Assembly (NCBI RefSeq): GCF_000025505.1
Contig: NC_013849.1
Location: forward strand, 30,001 to 62,000
From: Ferroglobus placidus DSM 10642
GTDB lineage: Archaea; Halobacteriota; Archaeoglobi; Archaeoglobales; Archaeoglobaceae
Reading direction: 5' to 3'
DNA length: 32,000 bases
Shown here: one piece after another, positions 213-13,354 of the stretch
Layout of the letters: every line of letters starts with the position of its first letter
Numbering within the stretch: the first letter of the stretch is position 1
Program-made: the position numbers and the translations under genes
The notes under the pieces: generated by a model
What the model was told of the DNA's origin: nothing
Databases searched by the model: none
What the model saw: the letters and a program-made list of their open reading frames with translations, nothing else

Positions 213-1139
213 ATGATCGAGCTGTGGCGAGATGATCTGATTTACTGGGTTAAGGATGTTGTTATTTCAGAGAAAGGTGTTGTAGCTCTATCACACGGTG
301 CAGTTTACTACTACAATCACGAAGGTGAGCTTTGCTGGGAGGAAGATATAGATGCAACTTCAATCTCACCACACGGCGATGGGATGATTGCTGGATGCGA
401 GGATGGGGAGGTATACTGTTTTGATAATGGTGGAAAAGAGCTCTGGAGATGTGATGTTGGAGAAAAAATTAAGAAAGTCTGTTCTGCAAGCTCTATAACC
501 TGTGCTGCAACTTCAAAGGGGAAAATAATCATTATTAAAAAAGGAAAAATATTGTGGGAATACAAGGCAGGAAGGAAAATTGATGATGTTGCCATTTTCC
601 CTGAGCTGTATGCTGCTGTGATAGCAAAAGACCTCATTACTGGCAGAGTCTTGTTATTTGATGTTTCCGGCAGGATTCTCTGGAATTCAAAAATAAATAC
701 TCATATCGGAGAAGCTTCCTTAGACATCTCTTCAAGATTGATTGTAGTGGGAACTCTGCAAGGAGTCTATCTGTTTGAGAAAAATGGGGATAGAGTATGG
801 AGAAATGCCCTGAGCGGGATCAGAAGTGTAGCAATAACCTCTGACGGAAAATATATTGCAGCGGGAGCCGTTGATGGCAAAGCTTATCTCCTAAGCTATA
901 GGGGAAAAATCGTTTGGAAAAAAGTACTCTCTAGTGCCGTGAGAAAAGTTCTGGTAACTGATGAGGGAAACTATGTATGTAATGACGGGAAAGGTCTCCG
1001 TATTTTCAATCCTCAGGGAGCACTGATATGGAAATTCGAGGGAGATGTTAGCGCTTTTGACATAACCCCTGACCTCTCGAAAATCGTCATTGGCAAAGAA
1101 GATGGTCAACTTATTTTGTTTGGATGGGATGGCAAATGA
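213..1139 (+). CDS. PQQ-like / WD40-like beta-propeller repeat protein
   Basis: A repeated roughly 40-aa unit ends in G-x-(I/L/V)-(L/V/I)-W motifs: GKELWRCDVG, GKILWEYKAG, GRILWNSKI, GDRVWRNAL, GKIVWKKVL, GALIWKFEG. ATG at 213 is preceded by GGGGGAT, making it a better start than the TTG at 198. Confidence 0.65.
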   Translation: MIELWRDDLIYWVKDVVISEKGVVALSHGAVYYYNHEGELCWEEDIDATSISPHGDGMIAGCEDGEVYCFDNGGKELWRCDVGEKIKKVCSASSITCAATSKGKIIIIKKGKILWEYKAGRKIDDVAIFPELYAAVIAKDLITGRVLLFDVSGRILWNSKINTHIGEASLDISSRLIVVGTLQGVYLFEKNGDRVWRNALSGIRSVAITSDGKYIAAGAVDGKAYLLSYRGKIVWKKVLSSAVRKVLVTDEGNYVCNDGKGLRIFNPQGALIWKFEGDVSAFDITPDLSKIVIGKEDGQLILFGWDGK

Positions 1140-1879
1140 TGACTAAAATGAACATAACTATACTTGCAATACTGTTTCTCTTTGTTTTTCCAGCAACCGC
1201 TTTACCCGAGATAAACTTCAACAAAATTCTTTATTTCGATAGCGTAGGTGAAAGCGAGACCCTGAACATCTCTCTCCTGAATGGCTCACCTCTCAGCGAG
1301 CTGACCATCACATTGTATTACAAGAAGGGAATAGAATTAACAAACATAACCTCTGCCTATCCAATCCTGAAAAAGGAATTAAACGAGGAAAATGGAAAAT
1401 TTCACCTCTTCTTAAACTTTCTTACGAAAAACCTCACGGACAACGAAACGGTCATTGCTTCAATTGAAATCAAAGCACTTTCTAAAGGATATTTTCCCAT
1501 GAAGATTGAGGCGTCTGGGCGCTATGAAAACGGGACAACCGTTGACGTTCTCGAAAGGTATTATAGTGTAGAGGTAATATCGGGAGAAGAGAATATCCCC
1601 GAAGCTCAGACTGTAGTGGGTCCTTTATTGATGTTTATGGTGATATTCGGTATGGTCGTTAGTATAGCGATAGTTGCCGGAGTGTTAACACTGCCGATTC
1701 TTATCGTTTACGCTGTCTTGAAAGCAAAAGGAAGAAATATCGATGTTAGATACCTCATCATTGCTTTTGTGTTTGTTCTGCTCTTGGCCTTTACGATGAT
1801 ATTTTGGGGTGTTGTGTATGGGCAAGCTGAAGTTCTTTCTGGCAGCAGTAATTTTGCTTGCTCTGTGTGGGTGTATTGA
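1136..1879 (+). CDS. Secreted/membrane-anchored protein: signal peptide, sequon-rich beta-rich ectodomain, C-terminal TM helices
   Basis: ATGA start/stop overlap with the upstream propeller gene (1136-1139). N-terminal hydrophobic signal (ITILAILFLFVFPATA). At least six N-x-S/T sequons (NIS, NGS, NIT, NLT, NET, NGT). Three hydrophobic helices at the C-terminus. Confidence 0.5.
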   Translation: MMTKMNITILAILFLFVFPATALPEINFNKILYFDSVGESETLNISLLNGSPLSELTITLYYKKGIELTNITSAYPILKKELNEENGKFHLFLNFLTKNLTDNETVIASIEIKALSKGYFPMKIEASGRYENGTTVDVLERYYSVEVISGEENIPEAQTVVGPLLMFMVIFGMVVSIAIVAGVLTLPILIVYAVLKAKGRNIDVRYLIIAFVFVLLLAFTMIFWGVVYGQAEVLSGSSNFACSVWVY

Positions 1880-2882
1880 GGAGAAGCAATCTGCAACCCA
1901 TGTGAATTTCGAACTGATATCGGTAATGAAAGATAACTCCACTTACAAAGCGGTTGTATTTATCAAATCAATTGAGCGTAATAAATCCATTCCTGTTTCA
2001 GCTTTCCTCGTAAAAACAAAAAACAAGATGTTCTCTTTGGATTCAGAAAATGTCTGGGTTCCTGGTTCAGGGAGAATGAGCAGCATTGAAACGGGGAAAA
2101 TTTTCGTCGTTAATTTAAGCGAAAACGACGGATATTTCTGGATATACCCGGCTCACCACAATTCAAGAGTACTGGGTTATCTCCTGGTAGCTTTAACCAA
2201 CTTATCGGAAAAAGAGATTAAAGAGATTCCAATCCCACTGAAACCTCCTGTATTTCCCAGACATTCAGTGGCTTATAAGAACGGAAAGCTTTTCCTGCTT
2301 GACAATACGATTTTTGGAAAAGCTGGGGATGTGATTGATGAGTTTAAAGAAGTAGAAATTAATGAGACCCGCAATCTAAGTTTGAAAAAAGGGTATTCTC
2401 TTAAAAGGATAGTTCTTGGAGTTAGAGGTGCTGACGTGCATGAAATTGTGGTTGCTGTTCACAACAACAGCGGTTTCTGGGTGGAGCCCGGAAATTACGA
2501 GCAGGGAGCTTTTCTCTTCGCTCCGATTGATAGCTCTGAAAAAGCAATAGAGTATCTTAATTTCCTTATGTTCAAAACTCGATATTCCGTAGCAGGCAGA
2601 ACTGCATTCTGGATTAAGAGTGAGGAGGAGTTAAAAAATATTGTCGCTGAAATGGAAAGACATGCATCAGAATTAGGAAGAAAGCTGTTAGTACTAGAGC
2701 ATCCTCCTGTGAATTTTACAGAAGTAAAAGAGTTAAATCAAGCATTTTTGGTCAGAGAGATATACTATACTAAATACCCGGAAAGTATTCGGTATCTGGA
2801 AGCTTTAATTAATGAAAATGGGGAAGTGAAGATTGTGGCAGATCGTATTTGCATTAAAGGAGTTAATTATTCTATGACATAA
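1818..2882 (+). CDS. Putative lipoprotein of unknown function
   Basis: MGKLKFFLAAVILLALCGC is a signal peptide followed by a lipobox-like LALCGC. Long uninterrupted ORF with no family motif I recognise. ATG at 1818 is preferred over GTG at 1809. Overlaps the upstream gene by about 62 nt. Confidence 0.5.
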   Translation: MGKLKFFLAAVILLALCGCIEEKQSATHVNFELISVMKDNSTYKAVVFIKSIERNKSIPVSAFLVKTKNKMFSLDSENVWVPGSGRMSSIETGKIFVVNLSENDGYFWIYPAHHNSRVLGYLLVALTNLSEKEIKEIPIPLKPPVFPRHSVAYKNGKLFLLDNTIFGKAGDVIDEFKEVEINETRNLSLKKGYSLKRIVLGVRGADVHEIVVAVHNNSGFWVEPGNYEQGAFLFAPIDSSEKAIEYLNFLMFKTRYSVAGRTAFWIKSEEELKNIVAEMERHASELGRKLLVLEHPPVNFTEVKELNQAFLVREIYYTKYPESIRYLEALINENGEVKIVADRICIKGVNYSMT

Positions 2883-3056: not shown

Positions 3057-4454
3057 ATGATGGTAGATATCGCTTTGATAAATCCTCGTGGCAGATTCGA
3101 GCTGGCTGAAGAGCTGAATTTCATCTCTCCACCGCTTGGATTGGCGTATCTTGCAGCAGTTCTCAGAATGGAAGGATACAAAGTAAAAATAGTGGATGCG
3201 ATGGCTGAAAGGCTTGAGATAGGAGAAGTTTTGAAGAAAATTAAAGACTGCTTCCTCGTAGGAATTACCGCGACAACTCCTCTTTTCAAAAGATCTTTAG
3301 AGTACGTGAGGGAAATAAAGAAAGCGTTTCCGGAAAAATTCGTTATTCTCGGAGGGGTTCACGTAACTTACAGACCTGCTGAGGGATTAAGAGAAGCTGA
3401 TGCTGTTTGCATAGGCGAGGGAGAGAAAACCATCGTTGAAGTTGCTGAAAGGGTTGAGAGTGGAAGAAGCTTGGAAGGTGTGAGAGGAATTTGGTGGAGA
3501 AAAGATAAAAAGATCGTTAGGAATTTGCCGAGGGAGCCTATTTTTGATCTCGATGCTCTTCCTTTTCCAGCTTTCGATCTTCTTCCCCTTAACAAGTACA
3601 GCTTTATGGAAAGACGGCTTGAAGAGTTTCCGATGATCACCTCTCGCGGCTGCCCCTTTTCATGCCTTTACTGCGTCTCCTCTAAATTTTTTGGTAGGAG
3701 GTACAGAAGTAGAAGTGCGGAAAACGTTGTGGAGGAAATGAAATGGCTGGAAGATGAATTTAACGCTAAACACATCGCTTTCAGCGACGACACCTTCACT
3801 TTAAGCAAAAAAAGGGTTGAGAGCATTTGTGAAAAAATAAAAGAAGAGGGTGTGGATTTAACCTGGAGCTGCGCCTCAAGAGCGGACACAATTGACAGAG
3901 AGCTCGTGAGGATTATGAAGAGGGCGGGATGCACCAGGATGTACTTCGGAGTTGAATCAGCGAGCGAGAGAATTCTAAACTTCTACAGAAAAAAGCTCGA
4001 TATAAAAGCGGTGGAAAGGGCAATAAGGATTTGCAAGGAGGAGGGAATAGAGACGGTGTGCTCATTCATAATAGGCGCTCCAGATGAAAGCGAGGAAGAA
4101 ATGAAGAGAACTTTGAAACTCGCGATGAAACTCGACCCTGACTACGCTCAATTTTCGATCCTCACTCCCTACCCAGGCACCGAGCTTTACGAGATCGCCG
4201 AGAAAGAAAATCTACTAATTACGAAGAATTACGAGGACTACACCGCCGGAAAACCCGTTATGAGAAACGCTCATTTAAGTCCTGAGAGGATTAAAGAGTT
4301 TCTAAACTACTGCTACATGAAGTTTTACGCTCGTCCGAAATATCTCTTCAAAATGGTCTCATCTAAGAACTTCAAACTCGTTTACAGCATAATAAAACGG
4401 CTACTTTTACCGAAAAACGTGTTCAGCCAGTCTATTGCCGAAAAATTAGGTTGA
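3057..4454 (+). CDS. B12-binding-domain radical SAM protein (class B radical SAM)
   Basis: N-terminal Rossmann-like cobalamin-binding region (PPLGLAYLAAVLRMEGYKVKIVD). Canonical CxxxCxxC cluster motif CPFSCLYC encoded at 3651-3674. Typical ITSRGCP context. Confidence 0.85.
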   Translation: MMVDIALINPRGRFELAEELNFISPPLGLAYLAAVLRMEGYKVKIVDAMAERLEIGEVLKKIKDCFLVGITATTPLFKRSLEYVREIKKAFPEKFVILGGVHVTYRPAEGLREADAVCIGEGEKTIVEVAERVESGRSLEGVRGIWWRKDKKIVRNLPREPIFDLDALPFPAFDLLPLNKYSFMERRLEEFPMITSRGCPFSCLYCVSSKFFGRRYRSRSAENVVEEMKWLEDEFNAKHIAFSDDTFTLSKKRVESICEKIKEEGVDLTWSCASRADTIDRELVRIMKRAGCTRMYFGVESASERILNFYRKKLDIKAVERAIRICKEEGIETVCSFIIGAPDESEEEMKRTLKLAMKLDPDYAQFSILTPYPGTELYEIAEKENLLITKNYEDYTAGKPVMRNAHLSPERIKEFLNYCYMKFYARPKYLFKMVSSKNFKLVYSIIKRLLLPKNVFSQSIAEKLG

Positions 4455-5594
4455 TTATCTAATCCTAACTGCAAACATGTCGGCTACGAAAGCGAGTATT
4501 GCGAAAGTAAATAGCACTCCTCCGGCTATAGAAGTTTGGGGAATAACTAAAAGTATTACCCCGAGAGGTGATACGTAAAGAGCGAACTTTCCGATTTTTA
4601 TGTTAAATAAATCAGCTATCATCGGCACATCTTCAACTCCAAGCTTGTCGGCATACTTCTCCATCCACGTAATCATCGGGATGATATGATATTCTGCCCC
4701 AACGATCGTCAGAGCTATCCAGCCGGCTAAAAGAAGGTGAGAGTGCTGGAAAGTTAGATCGAAGAATAAGTTCAGCGGAGCCAAAGTGATTCCAGCGAGT
4801 CCGAAAATTAACGCTACAACGAAAAACTTCACGCTTATATCAAGCTCAGCTTCGCTCTCCGGCTTAGAAGCGAGAGTAAGTAAGAGATTTAAAGCTAACA
4901 GGTAAAAGCTGAGGACGAACAAGGATCCGAAGAACAAAAGTGCCTTTTCTGAATACGTGAAACTGTAAATCATCCCGATGAGAGCAACATTTGAGATCAC
5001 GAACGTTACCCAAGCAAGTTTCTGACTTTTGAGCTTTCTTAAAGAGAGCATCGGAAACAACTCGTAAAGTCCTCCGAAAGTAGTTAGCCCTATCCACCCT
5101 GCAGCTAAGATGTGAGCGTGAACGCGGATGTTGAAAGTGAAAACTCCCAAGAATGCTAAAAGCGCATACGTTATTCCTGCTAAGTAGTAAATTATGGCTA
5201 CAGCAAAAAACCACACCGCTACGCTTGGAGAGAGTCTAGCGGAGGAGATCGTCAAAAAGATCACTATCGCGAACAATATCGCTCCAATTGTGTATATAGC
5301 TGCGGAAATCGAGAGATCTACAATACCGCGCATGGAAAGGGCTAAAAGCACCGTACCAAGATTTAGGAGGTAAAAGCTACCTTCAGCAAGGGCTTTCCCT
5401 CTCAATTCCGTCCCGAGTATCGTCGGAACTATTTGATACATCGCTCCTACGATTGTCAAGCTTACGAAGCCTGCAAGCATTAAATGAGAATGAACGGGTT
5501 TGAAGTAAAATCCAAAAAGGTTGAGAATTCCCAAAAAAGCCGCTACTACCAAGTAAACCAGAGCGGAGTATAGAAATTTTAAGGCTAAATTCAT
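4455..5594 (-). CDS. 12-TM integral membrane protein with three internal repeats, each carrying an HxH...G...Y..(I/V/F)P motif; family unknown (heme-copper-oxidase-like?)
   Basis: Motifs are HSHLMLAGFVSLTIVGAMYQIVP (aa 35-57), HAHILAAGWIGLTTFGGLYELFP (aa 159-181) and HSHLLLAGWIALTIVGAEYHIIP (aa 284-306), spaced 124-125 aa apart. GGAGGT sits 5 nt upstream of the ATG at 5594. It is the last gene of a coupled operon. Confidence 0.7.
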   Translation of the reverse strand: MNLALKFLYSALVYLVVAAFLGILNLFGFYFKPVHSHLMLAGFVSLTIVGAMYQIVPTILGTELRGKALAEGSFYLLNLGTVLLALSMRGIVDLSISAAIYTIGAILFAIVIFLTISSARLSPSVAVWFFAVAIIYYLAGITYALLAFLGVFTFNIRVHAHILAAGWIGLTTFGGLYELFPMLSLRKLKSQKLAWVTFVISNVALIGMIYSFTYSEKALLFFGSLFVLSFYLLALNLLLTLASKPESEAELDISVKFFVVALIFGLAGITLAPLNLFFDLTFQHSHLLLAGWIALTIVGAEYHIIPMITWMEKYADKLGVEDVPMIADLFNIKIGKFALYVSPLGVILLVIPQTSIAGGVLFTFAILAFVADMFAVRIR

Positions 5595-5595
5595 T

Positions 5596-5772
5596 TCAGA
5601 CCTCCTCTATCTCTCTGATAAGATCTTCAACCTTTAGTCCTCTAAATTCTGCCGCATCTTTAATCTTCACGTTACCTCCACAACAATCACAAATCCCGTA
5701 TTTAAAAAGGACCCTTTTAGCAGCGGGTTTTCTCCTTAAAACTTCTGCAACCGTCATATCCGGAGAGATCAT
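5596..5772 (-). CDS. DUF1858-type small protein (hybrid-cluster-protein-associated redox disulfide domain family)
   Basis: ISPDMTVAEVLRRKPAAKRVLFKYGI-CDCCGG...AAEFRGLKVEDLIREIE matches my recollection of the DUF1858/ScdA_N-like pattern. ATG at 5772 is preceded by GGTGAT with 4-nt spacing, so it is preferred over the GTG at 5781. Confidence 0.6.
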   Translation of the reverse strand: MISPDMTVAEVLRRKPAAKRVLFKYGICDCCGGNVKIKDAAEFRGLKVEDLIREIEEV

Positions 5773-5773
5773 A

Positions 5774-6274
5774 TTAATCACCTTCCACCTTTATGTACCT
5801 CGTAACGTCGACAATTCCTCCCTTTCTCCTCTTCTTTTCAGCGAGTATCTTCATAACTTCCTCGTACTTATCTCCCAAGCACTTTTCAGCGTAGCTGCAC
5901 CACTCTACGCAGCTGTCTATTTCGAATATTACTTCCTTTCCACAGTTCTCGCAAACACCTTTTATTTCGTCCGTCCACCTTTCAATGTCAGCTCCGCAGT
6001 AGGGACATTTCACGATCTCGAGGGAAGGTCTGAAGATCGTCGATACCCCCGGACAGCTTCCCGGAATGATCTCCGGCTCTCTTATTTCAAGTTTTACGTA
6101 TCCGTCTTCCTCTTTATACTTTACGATATATCCTTCATCGTGAAGTTTCTTTATCAAAGCTTCGGGTTTCGTTTCTATGATAACGTCCAAGTTACCTACC
6201 TCGCGAACTTTCTCAAGAATTAAACTGAACCTCTTGTCTCTGTCCATTCCCCTTACATCCAAAACCTCTACCAT
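5774..6274 (-). CDS. DUF2249-like N-terminal domain fused to a Cys-rich zinc-ribbon-like C-terminal domain
   Basis: N-terminus (VLDVRGMDRDKRFSLILEKV...LDVIIETKPEALIKKL) is paralogous to the upstream DUF2249 gene. C-terminus has CPYCG...CENCG plus CVEWCSYAEKC. ATG at 6274 is preceded by AAGGAGGG and is preferred over the ATG at 6304. Confidence 0.55.
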   Translation of the reverse strand: MVEVLDVRGMDRDKRFSLILEKVREVGNLDVIIETKPEALIKKLHDEGYIVKYKEEDGYVKLEIREPEIIPGSCPGVSTIFRPSLEIVKCPYCGADIERWTDEIKGVCENCGKEVIFEIDSCVEWCSYAEKCLGDKYEEVMKILAEKKRRKGGIVDVTRYIKVEGD

Positions 6275-6276
6275 GC

Positions 6277-6483
6277 TTAAGCCCTCCTTATTCGAACAAT
6301 CCACTTCTCACCATCAAACTTCGACTCGCAAACGTAACCTTTCTCCTTCAGCATAGCCATCAACGGCTTAGGCTCAACCTCGACTATCAATTCCAGCTCC
6401 CCATGCTCTTGCAGTTTCTTCATAACGAGGGGCGGTCTTTCTGGATGGGGCAAACCTCTAACGTCGAGCCTCTCCATAACCAT
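6277..6483 (-). CDS. DUF2249-family small protein
   Basis: LDVRGLPHPERPPLVMKKLQEHGELELIVEVEPKPLMAMLKEKGY fits the DUF2249 pattern (LDVR.L.p.eR.p.i...l..GE...l....P.PL). Its ATG overlaps the DUF59 stop (TGATG). Confidence 0.6.
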   Translation of the reverse strand: MVMERLDVRGLPHPERPPLVMKKLQEHGELELIVEVEPKPLMAMLKEKGYVCESKFDGEKWIVRIRRA

Positions 6484-6755
6484 CACTTCGTGAGTAACTC
6501 GTTAAGCTCTTCCTCCTTCACGTATCCGGTAACTTTTACCTTCGCTTTAACTCCCAAATCTTCCACACTTCGCTTTATAGCAAAAGCGAGCTGCTGACCT
6601 ATTGGACAGAAAGGCGAGGAAGGTCGGAACGTGATGTGAACTTCGTTATCCTTAACTTCAAGTTCCTCGATCAGTCCCATATCCCAAACATTCTGTCTCG
6701 TGTGGGGGTCTATAACCTTCTTCAATCTCTCAACTACTTCCTCTTTACTTACCAT
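6483..6755 (-). CDS. DUF59 / MIP18-family Fe-S assembly-related protein
   Basis: VVERLKKVIDPHTRQNVWDMGLI...ITFRPSSPFCPIGQQLA is the typical DUF59 signature (V.DPe....i.dlGlv, conserved Cys-Pro). GGTGGT lies upstream of the ATG. Confidence 0.7.
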   Translation of the reverse strand: MVSKEEVVERLKKVIDPHTRQNVWDMGLIEELEVKDNEVHITFRPSSPFCPIGQQLAFAIKRSVEDLGVKAKVKVTGYVKEEELNELLTK

Positions 6756-6783
6756 GTCCTACCACCAAAGAATCTTTGTTCTC

Positions 6784-6795
6784 AAAATATAATAG
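6784..6795 (-). promoter_or_regulatory. Candidate TATA box for the 6755->4455 operon
   Basis: The minus strand reads CTATTATATTTT about 30-40 nt upstream of the ATG at 6755, and it is the only A/T-box-like element in the 61-bp gap. Confidence 0.3.
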
Positions 6796-6816
6796 CCTAC
6801 TCCCGAAAAACTTAGG

Positions 6817-7485
6817 TTAGTCGATGAGAAGATATTTTCTCAGCTCATCTTCGAAGTTTTCTTCAATTACGCTCACAATTTTCCCGCTCAGTATGCTGTA
6901 AACTCTCGCTACATACGGTAGAATACTTTCAACTCTTTCGTGGGTTATAATAGCTATCCCCATCTCTTTCGATTTTTCTACGAGGATTTTCAGAACTCTC
7001 TCGAAAACTTTTTCCGACAGTCCGGCGAAAGGCTCGTCTAAAAGCAGATACTTCGGCTTCGAAATAAGGCTTCTCGCCAAAACCACAAGTTGCCTTTCTC
7101 CCCCACTCAAATTTCCAGCTTTTAGCTTTAGAAGCTTTTTCAGTTCTGGAAAAAGCTTTAAAGCCTCGTTGATGTCTCCGGTAATCTTTAAATTTTCTTT
7201 TACGCTGAGGTTTTCTGCGACCCTCATTCTTTCTGGAGAGTAGACTACGCCAAGCCTAAACCGCTCATGAGCTTTCATTTTACTCGCATCAACACCATCG
7301 ACGATAACGCTCCCGCCGTGTTTTAATATTCCGGCGATGCATTTAAAAAAAGTAGTTTTTCCGCTTCCGTTCGGTCCGAGCAGCAGCACGATCTCTCCTT
7401 TTCTCAATTCAATGTAGCAGTTCTCGAGCACTCTTTTTCCGTCAGCGTAGTAGCTTATTCTTTCAGCTTTCAACAATTTTTCCAC
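6817..7485 (-). CDS. livF: Branched-chain amino acid-type ABC transporter ATP-binding protein (LivF-like)
   Basis: Walker A GPNGSGKT, signature LSGGERQ, Walker B LLLDEP. Last gene of an SBP-permease-permease-ATPase-ATPase operon. Confidence 0.8.
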   Translation of the reverse strand: MEKLLKAERISYYADGKRVLENCYIELRKGEIVLLLGPNGSGKTTFFKCIAGILKHGGSVIVDGVDASKMKAHERFRLGVVYSPERMRVAENLSVKENLKITGDINEALKLFPELKKLLKLKAGNLSGGERQLVVLARSLISKPKYLLLDEPFAGLSEKVFERVLKILVEKSKEMGIAIITHERVESILPYVARVYSILSGKIVSVIEENFEDELRKYLLID

Positions 7486-8107
7486 CCTCCATTTTCAGAA
7501 AGCGATCAGCCAGGTTTGCGAGAATTCTTTTTCTGTGGGAGGTTATAATCATCGTTAAACCTTCTTCTTTTAGCTTTTCTACTTTCTCCCTAACTCTAAA
7601 GACGTTTTCCACATCAAGTCCAGCGAAAGGCTCGTCTAAAAGAAGAACTCTCGGATTCGTTGCATAAGCTTTCAGAATCTCAAGAAGCCTTGACTCCCCG
7701 TGGGAGATAAACTCGACCTTCCTATCTGCTATATACTCAAGACCCCACTCTTTGAGCATTTTTCTCGCAAGCTCGAAAGACTCTTCAACGCTGTGGTAGT
7801 TCATCAAAACAACTGCCAGGTTTTCCAAGGCAGTCATCTCTCTAAAATTTCTCGGAATCTGAAAGGCGTAAACAACTCCGAGCTTGACCATTTTTTCCGG
7901 AGGTAGTGCCGTTACGTTCAAGTCGTCGAGAAAGACTTTTCCGCAGCTTGGCTTTTCTATTCCGGCTATTATCTTCATTAAAGTACTCTTTCCGCTTCCG
8001 TTCGGTCCGAACAGTCCGAGAGTTTCCCCTTCTTCAAGATCGAAGCTCACGTTTTTGAGTATCATAACCCTTCCCTTAGACTTTGAGACGTTCCTGACCT
8101 TTAGCAT
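7463..8107 (-). CDS. livG: Branched-chain amino acid-type ABC transporter ATP-binding protein (LivG-like)
   Basis: Walker A GPNGSGKS, LivG-style signature region ISHGESRLLEI, Walker B LLLDEP. Start is uncertain (ATG at 8107 giving MLKVRNVS, or 8122). Either start overlaps the end of livM. Confidence 0.75.
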   Translation of the reverse strand: MLKVRNVSKSKGRVMILKNVSFDLEEGETLGLFGPNGSGKSTLMKIIAGIEKPSCGKVFLDDLNVTALPPEKMVKLGVVYAFQIPRNFREMTALENLAVVLMNYHSVEESFELARKMLKEWGLEYIADRKVEFISHGESRLLEILKAYATNPRVLLLDEPFAGLDVENVFRVREKVEKLKEEGLTMIITSHRKRILANLADRFLKMEGGKIVES

Positions 8108-8933
8108 ACACCCACCCGCCAATTTTCGGAGAGAGAATTAAAAGCATTGCATAAAGAAGAAGATGCGCTCCGGTAAGCAAAGCGTTCAGATAATTCGAGA
8201 CTACGAAGAGGGCTATAGAAGTAAGGGCTATGTACTCTTTTCTACCTCCGGTAACCACGTAGGAAATAAAGGGGAATATGCTTATCTCAAGGGAAAAAAT
8301 TTCTGGAGACACGTGGGAGAAGTATAAAGCGAGGCACAAACCTGCAAAAGATCCTATCGCAGAGGAGATTAGTGAAGTCGTCAGCTTAACTTTTTCGACT
8401 TCAATTCCCACTGCTCTCGATGCGAGTTCGTCCGATTTTATCGCTTTAGCGAAGTAACCGAACTTACTCTTCAAAAAGCTCTCGAATGCTATCGCAGAAG
8501 CTACGAATAAAAATGCTGAGAAGAGCAAAGTTGGGAAGCTGTGTATAATGAAAAATCCCTCTTCCCCTCCTTTTTCTTCGATGACTATGTAGGGTGCGAT
8601 TACGTAGGATAGAAGCGAAAGTGTGAAGGTGGCGAAAACAAAAGCCGTTTTACCAGTTGTTCTCTTAAGAAAGTAAAAGAGAGTCGCGCTTAAGGGAATG
8701 GAAATTAGAAAGCCAGCTATAAGCGAGTTAAAAAGCAAATACGTTATCGCTGAAAGGTAAGCTGAAAAGCCAACGACGAAGGAGTGCCCCATACTTATTC
8801 TACCTTCGTTTTCGAGTATCGCCCACGAAATTGAGATCGTCGAATAAATTAACGCAAGACCGATGAGCCATGAAGTGTATCCTTTCAGAATAAAAGGAAG
8901 AATTGCTAAGGCGACGTATATCAGAACTCTCAA
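8076..8933 (-). CDS. livM: ABC transporter permease (LivM-like, short form)
   Basis: Polytopic membrane ORF positioned between the LivH-like and LivG-like genes, containing a KAIKSDELASRAVGI segment typical of LivM (R.A...A..lGi). Confidence 0.65.
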   Translation of the reverse strand: MRVLIYVALAILPFILKGYTSWLIGLALIYSTISISWAILENEGRISMGHSFVVGFSAYLSAITYLLFNSLIAGFLISIPLSATLFYFLKRTTGKTAFVFATFTLSLLSYVIAPYIVIEEKGGEEGFFIIHSFPTLLFSAFLFVASAIAFESFLKSKFGYFAKAIKSDELASRAVGIEVEKVKLTTSLISSAIGSFAGLCLALYFSHVSPEIFSLEISIFPFISYVVTGGRKEYIALTSIALFVVSNYLNALLTGAHLLLYAMLLILSPKIGGWVYAKGQERLKV

Positions 8934-9622
8934 GCGAACACCTCCAGAAGCAGTGAGGCTGCTAAAGAGACTGCAATAATGTTTATGAGATTTCTCTCTC
9001 CAACAGATCTTTTTATCGCAGCTATAGCGGCTATCAAAATCCCAGCGAGCATGTAGCTGAGCCCTATTCTCGGGTGGATCGCTGAGCCTTCACTCGAAAC
9101 TATTCCGAGAATAATCGCAAAGAAAGTTGCGATGAGGATGGATGCGAAGCTGTAAGCTGCTGAATTTACTCCGCACATTCTCGCAAGTTCCTCATCCTCC
9201 TCTATAAATTTTAGTCTTATTCCGTGGGGGGAAATGTAGAAGGCTAACAAAAGCGAGTAAAAGGCGATAAAAACTTCTGGGAGAGCTTTAACTCCTTCGC
9301 TGACGACGTAGTAGTACCCTTTTTGCACGGTTATCCTCAAAATCTCCTCTATCGCAATCCCGTAGCCAAGGCTGACTATCGTAGCGTCCATGATTCCTCT
9401 GCAAATTCTCTCTTTGAGCAAAAAAAGGGGATAGGCTATTAGAAAGCTTAAGAGAAAAGCTAAGGGAATAGAAAGCTCTCTGGAAAAGTAAACGAGGTAT
9501 GCACCTATCGAGAAAGCAGAATACAAGGAGAGGTTCAGAAATTTCCCGATTCTGAAGTTAAAAGAAATTAGAGAAGCAAATACGGAGAAGATGAAAAAGT
9601 TTTCAAGGAAAGTTAAGGCCAT
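8930..9622 (-). CDS. livH: ABC transporter permease (LivH-like, short form)
   Basis: Polytopic membrane ORF with a 4-nt overlap with livM. The EEDEELARMCGVN segment resembles the LivH cytoplasmic loop. Only 230 aa. Confidence 0.6.
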   Translation of the reverse strand: MALTFLENFFIFSVFASLISFNFRIGKFLNLSLYSAFSIGAYLVYFSRELSIPLAFLLSFLIAYPLFLLKERICRGIMDATIVSLGYGIAIEEILRITVQKGYYYVVSEGVKALPEVFIAFYSLLLAFYISPHGIRLKFIEEDEELARMCGVNSAAYSFASILIATFFAIILGIVSSEGSAIHPRIGLSYMLAGILIAAIAAIKRSVGERNLINIIAVSLAASLLLEVFA

Positions 9623-10776
9623 ATAACATCGGAGGTTTTGAACTCCTCTGGGTAAACGACTTCTATCTTTCCGTTAACGTACTCCCCTATGATTCCTTTG
9701 AGCTTTTCGCTGCCCCAGACTGCCTGGTGTTTGTCGTCGAACTTGTAAATACCGGCAGCTCCTTTAAACTCTCCTTCTTCGAGGCTCTTAACGAGGTCTT
9801 TGTTCTTCTCGTAGGCTTGAGCTACTATTAAAATGGCGTCGTAGGTAAGTAGAGCGGCGTAGTTGTTAGCCTCTTCGCCGAACTTCTCTTTATAGCTGGA
9901 GAAGTACGCTGCAGTTAGCTCGGTCTTTTTGGTGTTTTCCAAAGCGGCAGCTTGGAAGGCTATGTAATTCTGATCGAGCTGCTTCAACGTTTGTGGTAAC
10001 GCAAGAACTCCACCGACGGAGTAAACTATCCCTTTCCCTCCGCTGTTTCTGTACTCCTTCACGAACGTCACCGAAAGTGTTCCCGGATCTCCGAGGATGA
10101 GAACATCTCTCTCGCCAACAACCTTAGCTGCTTCCCTGGCTTTTTCCACCACATCTTTCGGGTCCACCGCCGGAGACTTGTAAAAGCTCACGCCTTTGTT
10201 TTCAACTCCACTCGCGTTAATCTTCTTCAGCATTCCGAGGTTGAATATCTTAAGCGGATCGAAACCGACGAAGTAGAAACCTTCCGCTCCCGAGATTTTT
10301 AAGAATTCTGAAGCGAGCTCTCCCCAGTAGCTCGTGTTGTAAGCGTTTCTGAAAACGTATTTATTACCTTCCTCAACCATCTTTTCGAGCTGCTCGGTTG
10401 AGGCTACGCTCGCCACATATACAGTTTTAGTCTCTCCAGCGACTTTTGCCGCTGCTATCGCTTCGGAGCTCGAATAAGCTCCAACAACAGCTACAACTCC
10501 CTTCTCAACGAGCTGCCTGAAAGCCGAATCAGCCCCTTCCGGAGAGGATTTCGTGTCTGCAAAAATCAGCTCTATCTCGTATTTCGAAAGCTTGAACTTT
10601 TCAGCGTGTTCTTTAGCAAGCAATGCAGCGTTTTTCATAGCCTTTCCGGCAGTTGCAAATTTGCCCGTTTCTGGGATTAATACACCAATTTTTAGAGTTT
10701 CCTTCTTTTCCGCACAACCGGGAAGAATAGTGGCAAGAGCAATAAGCATTATCAGCGTTAAAGCCTTCGCTCTCAT
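9613..10776 (-). CDS. livK: ABC transporter substrate-binding lipoprotein (LivJ/LivK, type I periplasmic binding fold)
   Basis: Signal peptide plus lipobox (ILPGCAEKK), LKIGVLIPETGKFATAGKA, VVAVVGAYSSSEA. First gene of the operon. Confidence 0.8.
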   Translation of the reverse strand: MRAKALTLIMLIALATILPGCAEKKETLKIGVLIPETGKFATAGKAMKNAALLAKEHAEKFKLSKYEIELIFADTKSSPEGADSAFRQLVEKGVVAVVGAYSSSEAIAAAKVAGETKTVYVASVASTEQLEKMVEEGNKYVFRNAYNTSYWGELASEFLKISGAEGFYFVGFDPLKIFNLGMLKKINASGVENKGVSFYKSPAVDPKDVVEKAREAAKVVGERDVLILGDPGTLSVTFVKEYRNSGGKGIVYSVGGVLALPQTLKQLDQNYIAFQAAALENTKKTELTAAYFSSYKEKFGEEANNYAALLTYDAILIVAQAYEKNKDLVKSLEEGEFKGAAGIYKFDDKHQAVWGSEKLKGIIGEYVNGKIEVVYPEEFKTSDVIWP

Positions 10777-11858: not shown

Positions 11859-12752
11859 ATGGAGGAATCTCTGCTTGAAGTGGAAGTAGCTGGATTGAAG
11901 ATGAGGAATCCTCTTATCCTCGCAAGCGGCATTCTCGGAAGTTACGCTTCTTCCCTCAACAGAATTTCCGAGCACGCTGGGGCTGTAATTTCGAAAAGTG
12001 TTGGAGTAGAGGAGGTGGAGGGATACAAAAATCCCGTTGTTGTAAACTACTCCCACGGCATAATCAACGCCGTCGGCTTATCATCTCCGGGAGCCGTCAA
12101 GTTTGCGGAAGAACTGAAAGCTTACAAGGGAAGTGCTCCGCTGATAGTAAGCGTTTTCGGCTCTTCTCCCGAAGAATTCGCTAAAGTAACTTCTCATTTC
12201 CCCTTCGCTTCAGCTTTTGAGCTGAACCTCAGCTGTCCCCACTCGGAAAAGTACGGATTGACTGTAGGTTCAGACCCAGACCTCGTAAAGGAAATTGTAA
12301 AGAAGGTTAAGAAAGCCACGAACAAGCCTGTTTTTGCCAAAGTTTCAGCAAACGTAGATGTTGTCGAGGTAGGAAAAGCAGCTGAAGAGGGAGGAGCTGA
12401 CGGAATCGTTGCGATAAATACCGTGAAAGGAATGAGAATAGATATTTTTACGAAGAAGCCGATACTCAGCAACATCAGCGGAGGTGTGAGCGGATCGGCG
12501 ATAAAGCCAATAGCAATAAAATGCGTCTGGGATCTTTACGAAGAGCTCGAGATACCGATTATCGGGTCTGGAGGAGTTACGACGTGGAGAGACGTCGTGG
12601 AGTTCATGCTGGCTGGAGCCTCTGCCGTGGAAGTGGGAAGCGTCATGTACTATTCCCTGAGGGCGATTTACAGCTTAAAAGAGAGCCTGATAGCTTACGC
12701 GAGGATGGTAAACTGCAAGTTGGAGGAGTTAATAGGAGCCGCTCACGGCTAA
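11859..12752 (+). CDS. pyrD: Dihydroorotate dehydrogenase, class 1 catalytic subunit
   Basis: LKMRNPLILASG, INAVGLSSPG, ELNLSCPH (active-site Cys), GADGIVAINT, GGVSG, IGSGGV. Full-length TIM-barrel DHOD pattern. Confidence 0.85.
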   Translation: MEESLLEVEVAGLKMRNPLILASGILGSYASSLNRISEHAGAVISKSVGVEEVEGYKNPVVVNYSHGIINAVGLSSPGAVKFAEELKAYKGSAPLIVSVFGSSPEEFAKVTSHFPFASAFELNLSCPHSEKYGLTVGSDPDLVKEIVKKVKKATNKPVFAKVSANVDVVEVGKAAEEGGADGIVAINTVKGMRIDIFTKKPILSNISGGVSGSAIKPIAIKCVWDLYEELEIPIIGSGGVTTWRDVVEFMLAGASAVEVGSVMYYSLRAIYSLKESLIAYARMVNCKLEELIGAAHG

Positions 12753-13354
12753 TTTCCCGAAAAGTACTTTTCGAGAACCTTTTTCTGACCCCTCCTCAAA
12801 ATTTCGGATAAAGTCGAGGGAGCTATGTTTAGTTGCGAAGCGAGCTCTTCAAGCTTTATCTTCTTCGGGAAGTCGAAGTAACCTTTCTCTAAGGCTATTT
12901 TTAGAATCTCCTCTTCTCTGAGCGTCACTTTATCCTTCTCTCCAAATCTGCCCTTGTATACTATCTCAAATTCCACTCCCTCTTTTTCGAGTTCCCTTGA
13001 AAGCTTAATGAAGCTGTCCTCGTCGCAGATTATGTTCCAAGTAACGTTATCTTTTTCGAGGACGGCTGAGGAAATCAAGCAGCCAGATTTTAGTATCGTT
13101 AAAGCCACATGACACGTGTGACCTTTGAAGAGTATCTTCACCTCGTCTTTAGCAACCGGAGAGAAAACGCACGTGGCCGGCAACTCGCTCAGAATTTTTT
13201 CGACGTTTCTCGCTTTCAGATCTATGAGGCTTCTGAGCTCTTCGTTGAACGTGCTCACCTTCTCAACCTTCACGATCGCCTCGTCGAGAACTCTTCTGAC
13301 TATCGAAAGCTGGCAATCCGGAGGAGCGGGAGTTTTTATCTGAACTTCGATCAT
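12749..13354 (-). CDS. Bat-type (HTH_10) helix-turn-helix transcriptional regulator
   Basis: C-terminal TLREEEILKIALEKGYFDFPKKIKLEELASQLNIAPSTLSEILRRGQKKV is the classic HTH_10 signature (GY.d.PR......lA..lgis.st..e.LRr.e.k). Convergent 4-nt overlap with pyrD. Confidence 0.75.
   Translation of the reverse strand: MIEVQIKTPAPPDCQLSIVRRVLDEAIVKVEKVSTFNEELRSLIDLKARNVEKILSELPATCVFSPVAKDEVKILFKGHTCHVALTILKSGCLISSAVLEKDNVTWNIICDEDSFIKLSRELEKEGVEFEIVYKGRFGEKDKVTLREEEILKIALEKGYFDFPKKIKLEELASQLNIAPSTLSEILRRGQKKVLEKYFSGN

Follow-up and report, generated by a model that had tools for sequence, protein, structure and literature searches.

The window analyzed here is a 32,000-nucleotide stretch of the Ferroglobus placidus DSM 10642 genome (contig NC_013849.1, positions 30,001 to 62,000 of the forward strand; coordinates below count from the first letter of this window). 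Within it, five open reading frames (ORFs), Ferp_0047 to Ferp_0043, form a minus-strand block from 6755 to 4455, which constitutes one operon. Its last gene encodes a 12-helix membrane protein that descends from the catalytic subunit of a heme-copper oxidase or nitric oxide (NO) reductase (NOR) and that cannot hold the binuclear CuB/FeB center. A DUF59 protein, a DUF2249 protein, and this membrane protein make up a conserved core module, which in relatives lies inside clusters and regulons of nitrate, nitrite, and NO respiration. The system is real, conserved, uncharacterized, and evolutionarily attractive; it is not categorically new, because such oxidase homologs were already described computationally in 2014.

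A membrane protein of oxidase descent in a five-gene operon

The features discussed in the following are these, all on the minus strand:

4455..5594, minus: Ferp_0043, 379 aa, a 12-helix homolog of the heme-copper oxidase superfamily (Pfam COX1, AlphaFold2 [AF2], Foldseek, hhalign)
5232-5594, 4845-5231, and 4458-4844, minus: the four-helix units of Ferp_0043, three repeats of ~125 aa
5484..5492, minus: H35-S-H37, outer end of helix 2; H35 is at the position of the helix-II low-spin heme ligand of NorB/CcoN
5112..5120, minus: H159-A-H161, outer end of helix 6; H161 approximates the helix-VI CuB/FeB ligand, in a low-confidence alignment
4737..4745, minus: H284-S-H286, outer end of helix 10; matches the helix-X HxH that ligates both hemes (cbb3 H345/H347 of 3mk7; NorB)
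4608..4667, minus: conserved loop between helices 10 and 11, W310..Y314..G319..P324..L329, a candidate docking surface for soluble partners
6483..6755, minus: Ferp_0047, 90 aa, DUF59/FeS_assembly_P (PF01883, E 1.1e-14; GenBank ADC64239.1 "DUF59")
6277..6486, minus: Ferp_0046, 66-69 aa, a single DUF2249 (PF10006, E 3.7e-9; start ambiguous)
6071..6274, minus: N-terminal domain of Ferp_0045, residues 1-68, a second DUF2249 by similarity to Ferp_0046
5864..6055, minus: C-terminal 8-Cys domain of Ferp_0045, residues 74-137, CPG..CxxCG..CxxCG..SCxxWCxxAxxC
5596..5772, minus: Ferp_0044, 58 aa, a stand-alone ScdA_N/DUF542 (PF04405, 44.2 bits, cutoff 32.5)
6785..6794, minus: TATA-like box TATTATATTT, ~35 nt upstream of the Ferp_0047 start, read from the sequence and kept in a Ferroglobus metagenome-assembled genome (MAG), L008

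The protein of the last gene is identical (100%) to Ferp_0043, whereas the tags Ferp_0047, Ferp_0046, and Ferp_0044 were assigned by gene order. Against PF00115 (COX1), Ferp_0043 scores 60.7 bits (cutoff 34.8), as the sum of three partial matches that all fall on the helix-X region. Its AF2 model, based on 61 homologs, contains 12 transmembrane helices (pLDDT 97.2, pTM 0.94), and when it was compared with the PDB using Foldseek, the top 50 matches were all subunit I of oxidases or NORs, the best being CcoN of a cbb3 oxidase (E 4e-9, TM-score 0.75-0.82). A profile comparison using hhalign aligned the protein collinearly with a NorB/qNOR alignment at 96.7% probability; repeat unit 2 on its own had no PDB match by sequence. 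An HxH motif opens the second helix of each repeat. The first-pass annotation had described a histidine-rich polytopic protein with a triplicated HxH, and the three HxH repeats are indeed present; the protein is not anonymous, however, as it belongs to the heme-copper oxidase superfamily and has no full set of CuB/FeB ligands.

At the sequence level, H35, H286, and H284 align with H53, H328, and H326 of NorB and with H60, H347, and H345 of CcoN, the CcoN residues being mapped by phmmer alignments and those of NorB/qNOR by profile-profile alignment. By these alignments Ferp_0043 keeps His residues equivalent to the low-spin heme pair (H35 and H286), to the high-spin heme ligand (H284), and, in a stretch aligned with low confidence, to one CuB/FeB ligand (H161). 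In the NorB/qNOR profile alignment, the "GHHY" of NOR helix VII is paired with "IYSF", which contains no His-His, and no Glu ligand is found in helix VI. Because the helix-VII His-His of the CuB/FeB site is lost, we assign Ferp_0043 no oxidase or NOR role. A positive-inside count of 16 K/R versus 4 points to the oxidase topology, with the His residues near the outer face and the loop between helices 10 and 11 in the cytoplasm. In the near family, conservation of the five named residues of this loop (W310, Y314, G319, P324, and L329) is 94-100%; in the wider family set it remains >90% for W310, G319, and P324.

Compared with subunit I of oxidases and NORs (CcoN, 3mk7; NorB, 3o0r), Ferp_0043 has a like 12-helix core of three four-helix units, the same topology with His ligands near the outer face, and His residues matching the helix-II and helix-X heme ligands and one helix-VI ligand; the helix-X "YH" and "GW" motifs are common to it and cbb3. 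It differs in being ~100 residues shorter, in lacking the helix-VII His-His, the Glu ligand, the cross-linked Tyr motif, and a partner redox subunit, no gene for an electron-entry subunit (subunit II/CuA, CcoO/CcoP, NorC) lying within or beside the operon, and in having an extra His pair, H37/H159, without counterpart in oxidases. Its units, moreover, are still 27-39% identical to each other, and those of some family members 49-61%, whereas to our knowledge the units of true oxidases have no recognizable mutual sequence similarity. The highest values belong to P0048 and P0049 (399 aa, both from groundwater Euryarchaeota MAGs), whose repeat identity points to either recent triplication or strong symmetric constraint. 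Repeats that are 27-61% identical are good material for studying the origin of the 12-helix oxidase core by triplication of a four-helix unit.

When 1.84 billion cluster representatives were searched with a profile, 779 clusters (50% identity) passed E <= 1e-30, which sets a lower bound on the size of the family, and 3080 passed E <= 1e-10. Pfam and NCBIfam contain no curated model specific to this family, its longer members (P0107, P0108, P0050, and others) showed no fused Pfam domain that would be informative, and literature searches returned nothing on Ferp_0042 to Ferp_0048 or on the guessed Sinorhizobium meliloti tags SMa1256 to SMa1262. The only near-universal His across the family are H37, the second His of unit 1 (98%), and H159, the first of unit 2 (96%), and most members keep just two His; a Gln54/Pro57 pair is likewise conserved family-wide. 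All six HxH His are found in 16 of 81 close homologs and 20 of 143 wider representatives, and the seven-His pattern that includes H303 in 16/81 and 17/143, respectively; within the close set this pattern is confined to the Archaeoglobi, the Hydrothermarchaeota, and related MAGs. The profile alignment shows no NOR equivalent of H37 or H159 either. Since these two residues sit at non-equivalent places of neighboring units, much as helices X and II sandwich the low-spin heme, they fit a heme between units more readily than a metal located on the axis of symmetry. By symmetry we predict one such heme pocket between units 1 and 2 family-wide, at a place where oxidases have no His ligands, and the Ferroglobus subfamily may possess two further pockets at the oxidase heme positions.

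Pei, Li, Kinch and Grishin (2014, Protein Sci 23:1220) are said to have described heme-copper-oxidase-homology (HCOH) proteins, NnrS included, as composed of four-helix units with a reduced His set; these were reportedly predicted to bind heme, in a context of denitrification and NO detoxification. Ferp_0043 falls under this concept by its homology to oxidase subunit I, its three four-helix units, and its incomplete set of the six canonical His, although two His are said to be typical and the Ferroglobus subfamily keeps the six HxH His and H303. It is not itself an NnrS: it has no match to PF05940 at E <= 1, and an annotated Ensifer NnrS, which coexists with a true family member, scores 8.5 bits against the hidden Markov model (HMM) of the Ferp_0043 family. 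The initial claim of an "undescribed system" was too strong, as a computational study had already linked oxidase-homology proteins to DUF2249 (Pei et al. 2014, as cited in PMC11218638) and the Thermus proteins DrpA and DrpB had been studied genetically (PMC6282519). With its 379 residues and very confident model, Ferp_0043 is a compact, thermostable candidate for working out the role of oxidase-homology and NnrS-like proteins in denitrification islands. The family could also prompt a false inference of aerobic respiration in anaerobes and MAGs; the homologs P0014, P0039, P0049, P0052, and others could be misread in this way in anaerobic archaeal MAGs.

The four soluble proteins have neither signal peptide nor membrane helix judging from their sequences, and none of the five proteins has a CxxCH motif. 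Ferp_0047 scores 54.9 bits against PF01883 (cutoff 23.5) and contains a Cys-Pro motif (C50, nt 6608-6606); among 49 module-linked DUF59 homologs D16-P17 and C50-P51 are invariant. It shares with SufT-type proteins the DUF59 domain with its reactive Cys, and its nearest NCBIfam relatives are SufT/SUF-associated proteins, yet its scores fall far short of the equivalog cutoffs for SufT and PaaD. Ferp_0046 (36.7 bits against PF10006, cutoff 29.5) is a DUF2249 protein, a domain in which 63 homologs conserve no Cys or His and no catalytic or ligand residue. The N-terminal domain of Ferp_0045 scores 20.7 bits against PF10006, below the cutoff, but is a clear paralog of Ferp_0046 (38% identity, E 4e-13), and its orthologs P0085-P0090 carry PF10006; AF2 models it in the order beta-alpha-beta-alpha-beta-beta (pLDDT ~84). 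The Cys-rich half, modeled with a pLDDT of 51-77, consists of a zinc-ribbon core and four further Cys, all eight being invariant, and has only weak sub-cutoff zinc-ribbon matches in Pfam and NCBIfam. This 8-Cys domain is rare, with six matches among 5.8 billion proteins. In Hydrothermarchaeota loci it stands alone (80-107 aa) between the DUF59 and ScdA_N genes, as seen from first-round HMM matches (the iterated HMM drifted into DUF2249).

Ferp_0044 carries a C-x-CCGG motif at nt 5680-5691, and C30-C31-G-G is invariant among 11 module-linked ScdA_N homologs. It aligns, CCGG included, with residues 1-58 of Staphylococcus aureus ScdA (9r7j); in NCBIfam it is nearest to RIC/ScdA/YtfE and to a hybrid-cluster-protein-associated redox disulfide domain. 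Unlike full-length RIC/YtfE/ScdA, its 58 residues include no C-terminal hemerythrin-like di-iron domain, and, in a further difference from RIC and SufT, Ferp_0047 and Ferp_0044 are encoded with a membrane heme-type protein and not with suf genes. A DUF1858 assignment for Ferp_0044 was rejected: PF08984 stays under its cutoff (29.4 bits against 32.2) on the same stretch that ScdA_N fits better. The DUF1858 NMR structure 2k5e does match the protein (E 1.5e-4). The DUF59, DUF2249, and DUF2249-Cys-rich fusion assigned to the first three genes by the first-pass annotation thus held up by HMM or similarity, whereas its DUF1858 gave way to ScdA_N/DUF542.

The ORFs lie where that annotation had placed them, and the tight coupling it described is borne out, with junctions of 0-5 nt read from the sequence. 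The stop codons and starts are separated by 2 nt between Ferp_0046 and Ferp_0045 (TAA 6279-6277, GC, ATG 6274) and by 1 nt each between Ferp_0045 and Ferp_0044 (TAA 5776-5774, T, ATG 5772) and between Ferp_0044 and Ferp_0043 (TGA 5598-5596, A, ATG 5594), exactly as proposed. The first junction is less certain: Ferp_0047 ends with TGA 6485-6483, and Ferp_0046 has candidate starts at GTG 6486, ATG 6483, and ATG 6477. The TGATG at 6483 noted earlier is present and would give a 1-nt overlap, but the GenBank start is ATG 6477 (66 aa), as in most orthologs (65-66 aa), which leaves a 5-nt spacer. Shine-Dalgarno-like motifs (GGTGGT, GTGAT, AGGAGG, GGTGAT, GAGGAGG) lie 4-8 nt 5' of the starts, so the GGTGAT/GGAGG-type ribosome-binding sites claimed for every gene were found. 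The sole sizeable gap of the block is one of 61 nt between Ferp_0047 and the upstream ABC-transporter gene, and the TATA-like TATTATATTT is likely the operon promoter.

A conserved core module in nitrogen-oxide respiration loci

To describe the gene neighborhoods of Ferp_0043 homologs, we used a sample of 80 loci from GTDB species genomes and others, in which a DUF59 or DUF2249 gene was counted when it was on the same strand as, and <=2 kb from, the homolog. DUF59 and DUF2249 genes accompany the homolog as follows:

Archaeoglobi: DUF59 9/9, DUF2249 9/9
Hydrothermarchaeota-type MAGs: DUF59 15/19, DUF2249 8/19
Bacillaceae: DUF59 18/18, DUF2249 18/18
Other bacteria: DUF59 5/7, DUF2249 7/7

All non-haloarchaeal loci together give 47/53 for DUF59 and 42/53 for DUF2249, and ScdA_N is present at 19 loci. 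The haloarchaea often have no DUF59 beside the homolog; haloarchaeal proteins of 190-226 aa, matched by the iterated DUF59 HMM, were left out of the DUF59 counts, one of them (L007) being a DUF7998 protein and two others having no Pfam family. This gene arrangement is not due to chance, and DUF59, DUF2249, and the 12-helix membrane protein are the conserved core. The expectation that the five-gene set would be found outside this genome thus proved correct for the core, which is widespread, but not for the exact set of five parts, which is restricted to Ferroglobus and close Archaeoglobi MAGs. In the Nitrospirae, for example, ScdA_N, DUF2249, tandem DUF2249, the membrane-protein homolog, and DUF59 occur in another order and without the 8-Cys domain. 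The core is also carried by Geoglobus species.

In relatives the module is surrounded by genes of nitrogen-oxide metabolism. In Ensifer canadensis the order is norCBQD-hemN-[DUF2249-homolog-DUF2249x2-DUF59]-nnrS-nirK-Crp/Fnr, and the gene for the Ensifer membrane protein is found on 111 rhizobial plasmids as well, S. meliloti pSymA among them. The Oceanobacillus neighborhood includes hemerythrin, a radical SAM/SPASM gene, cupredoxin, Crp/Fnr, SCO1, and a COX1 gene, and that of Halapricum includes narJ, a DUF59-ParA-DUF2249 fusion, a TIGR04053 radical SAM gene, and qNOR. The first-pass annotation had expected NO- and redox-related neighbors, and relatives do have them (hemerythrin, NnrS, nirK, nor, nar, Crp/Fnr); the 32-kb F. 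placidus window has no NO, denitrification, or nar genes near the operon, the neighbors being the ABC transporter and housekeeping genes.

Fusions of DUF59, a ParA/Mrp-type Fe-S carrier ATPase, and DUF2249 in one protein are encoded inside or beside haloarchaeal nar clusters and provide a "Rosetta stone" link of both small domains to Fe-S delivery; instances are L007 1753-2994 and Haloferax mediterranei E6P09_17415 (PMC11218638). A TIGR04053 radical SAM/SPASM gene lies beside the module at L007 4860-5981, L061 7900-9033, L035 3245-4092, and 14 other loci, all of haloarchaea or Bacillaceae; the L035 copy (Oceanobacillus) consists of two adjacent ORFs and is a candidate TIGR04053. The closest relative of TIGR04053 is the heme b synthase AhbD, and the Bacillaceae protein might carry out an oxygen-independent heme-synthesis step for denitrifying growth.

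A regulator gene adjoins the module at 35 loci, HTH_10 at 18 and Crp/Fnr at 17. The palindrome CGAACATGTTCG, reported upstream of denitrification genes of Hfx. mediterranei (PMC11218638), was found ~50 nt before the first module gene at 12/16 Hydrothermarchaeota-type loci (nine of them exact) and at 16/29 haloarchaeal loci, and is thus an element common to two archaeal classes. Sites include L015 5442, L018 5440, L019 5415, L023 5349, L024 5187, and L025 5385, and the element is also located ~50 nt before the ORF in L059, L062, L065, L072, L076, L082, and L084. It supports membership of the regulon in these relatives and not in F. placidus. The HTH_10 regulators beside 18 archaeal modules may be the cognate factor of the palindrome.

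The Thermus drp locus ties the module to proteins with known phenotypes. In Thermus thermophilus JL-18 the order is narGHJI, narK, drpA, drpB, a gene for a 144-aa protein, protoglobin, a gene for a 383-aa homolog, and DUF59; drpAB and the four genes that follow it (L091, pTTJL1801, 6783-10581) are tightly spaced on the same strand. The 144-aa protein is a single oxidase-like four-helix unit with an SHVH motif, and the 383-aa protein is a three-unit member of the Ferp_0043 family (154.8 bits). DrpA is a single DUF2249 protein like Ferp_0046, and DrpB joins DUF1858 to two DUF2249 domains, a domain set equal to Ferp_0044, Ferp_0046, and the N-terminus of Ferp_0045, so that in both organisms genes for DUF59 and an oxidase-like membrane protein accompany those for DUF2249 and DUF1858-type proteins. 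Thermus differs in that the domains are fused otherwise, the DUF1858 part has no Cys-Cys motif, there is no 8-Cys domain, and the locus is attached to nar and contains in addition protoglobin and the single-unit protein. The F. placidus operon, in contrast, is not linked to nar: the nar (Ferp_0311-0314), norBC, and nosZ genes are located elsewhere in its genome (PMC3236036).

DrpA and DrpB are the only proteins of the gene set that have been studied experimentally. Their genes are induced by anoxia plus nitrate via DnrT, DrpB is cytoplasmic yet binds the membrane, single drp mutants deregulate Pnar and Pdnr, and deletion of drpB makes promoter activity constitutive even in air without nitrate (PMC6282519). 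The gene order links this "nitrate sensor" to a membrane heme-type protein and a DUF59 protein encoded just downstream, and suggests a possible explanation of why the cytoplasmic DrpB sticks to the membrane.

Sensing, maintenance, or catalysis

We tentatively read the module as a heme-based membrane sensor or transducer that serves nitrogen-oxide respiration, and regard this as a possibility somewhat short of even. One to three b-type hemes would lie between neighboring units, close to the outer face of the membrane, where they would bind a small ligand such as NO or O2 or register the membrane redox state. Helix 10 and the conserved loop on the cytoplasmic side would relay the resulting change to the soluble proteins translated together with Ferp_0043, with the DUF2249 domains acting as adaptors, like DrpA/DrpB, and DUF59, ScdA_N, and the 8-Cys domain supplying a thiol or Fe-S switch. 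The output would tune, and perhaps protect, the nitrogen-oxide respiration apparatus.

Several points weigh against a sensor of this kind. Fe-S maturation and repair, rather than signaling, are the processes for which DUF59 and ScdA_N are best known, and Geoglobus, which carries the core, comprises Fe(III) reducers that are not known to respire nitrate. The F. placidus operon has no neighboring regulator or nitrogen-oxide gene; the palindrome CGAACATGTTCG is found at 0/7 Archaeoglobi loci, and the best site upstream of the F. placidus operon has three mismatches. Heme binding by Ferp_0043, the number of hemes, and ligand binding are suggested by alignment, that of helix 6 to NOR being of low confidence. 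The Thermus work treated drpAB as a two-gene nitrate sensor and did not mention the genes downstream, that of the membrane protein included, and in the drp double mutant NarG is made while nitrate-reductase activity drops to one tenth, a phenotype that a role in metal-center maintenance would explain equally well or better (PMC6282519).

Such a role, in which the membrane protein together with DUF59, ScdA_N, and the 8-Cys protein protects, repairs, or matures the Fe-S or other metal centers of respiratory enzymes during NO production, appears to us rather unlikely, though it deserves serious weight. Together they would act much as NnrS, RIC/YtfE, and SufT each do on their own, and the regulatory phenotypes in Thermus would be secondary. 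Besides the low nitrate-reductase activity of the drpAB double mutant, the invariant Cys-Pro of DUF59 and Cys-Cys of ScdA_N, the NCBIfam neighbors of Ferp_0047 (SufT/SUF) and Ferp_0044 (RIC/ScdA/YtfE and the hybrid-cluster-protein-associated domain), the haloarchaeal DUF59-ParA/Mrp-DUF2249 carrier fusions in or beside nar clusters (PMC11218638), and the recurrence of AhbD-like TIGR04053 and hemN beside the module all argue for it. What it leaves without explanation is the membrane protein, as outer-face hemes in a 12-helix protein have no obvious role in cytoplasmic Fe-S repair; promoters that become constitutive in air without nitrate after drpB deletion are likewise hard to explain by cofactor damage, and DUF2249, second only to DUF59 as a constant partner, conserves no residue that could serve as a ligand.

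Ferp_0043 might instead be catalytic, a minimal quinol- or thiol-driven reductase of NO, nitrite, or O2 at a heme site, such as the NO-forming nitrite reductase that is seemingly missing from F. placidus, which lacks both NirK and NirS and yet reduces nitrate to N2O (PMC3236036). The fold and heme-ligand set, which are those of NOR and cbb3, and a seven-His subfamily peculiar to the Archaeoglobi and Hydrothermarchaeota are consistent with this. We consider it improbable, because there is no second metal site (neither helix-VII His nor Glu ligand) and the operon encodes no cytochrome c or CuA subunit as electron donor; in addition, Ensifer has a family member alongside NirK, Nor, and NnrS, and the retention of just two His in most members fits catalysis poorly. 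A true cbb3 oxidase, which the COX1 score above the gathering cutoff could suggest, is contradicted by the sequence and can be regarded as essentially excluded: that score adds up three partial matches to one helix region, the NCBIfam ccoN model (TIGR00780) gives 36.1 bits against an equivalog cutoff of 583, CuB ligands are absent, there is no ccoO or ccoP gene, the protein has 379 aa versus ~475 aa for CcoN, and the host is a strict anaerobe (PMC3236036).

It is also conceivable, though quite unlikely in our judgment, that the six-HxH protein of the Ferroglobus type is a near-symmetric, three-heme relic of an ancestor that preceded the oxidases, which fills a third, symmetry-related pocket in addition to the two heme positions of modern oxidases and, with its thiol and Fe-S partners, has a novel reaction or signaling role in nitrogen-oxide metabolism. 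Symmetry predicts that this third pocket would be unliganded in oxidases, and it would be the only one that the broad family keeps (H37/H159). If true, such a relic could be, for example, a transmembrane NO sensor behind the Thermus Drp phenotypes, or the missing nitrite reductase of F. placidus.

Genes around the operon

At its 3' end the operon meets a convergent gene for a B12-binding radical SAM protein (3057-4454, plus strand), which is closest to HpnJ/BchE but below their cutoffs. The stop codon of Ferp_0043 (4457-4455) directly abuts the stop of this gene at 4454, with no space for a terminator, and the stop-to-stop pairing is kept only in the Ferroglobus MAG L008. We rejected this protein as a part of the system: it is kept at this place only in Ferroglobus and is unrelated to the TIGR04053 proteins of other loci. 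The radical SAM gene near the Geoglobus module is not a TIGR04053 either. Farther along, the ORFs at 1124-1879 (plus strand, 251 aa) and 1809-2882 (plus strand, 357 aa) match no Pfam family at E <= 1e-5.

Upstream, on the same strand, an ABC transporter block of the branched-chain-amino-acid type (6817-10776, minus) ends 61 nt before Ferp_0047; it encodes two ATPases (Walker A GPNGSGKT), two permeases, and one Peripla_BP_6 binding protein. The TATA-like box in the intervening gap led us to treat this block as a unit of its own, a candidate separation that transcripts may read through. At a distance of 6 kb from the operon (12749-13354, minus) is a gene for an HTH_10 (bacterio-opsin-activator-type) regulator, a family whose genes are found beside the module elsewhere in archaea.

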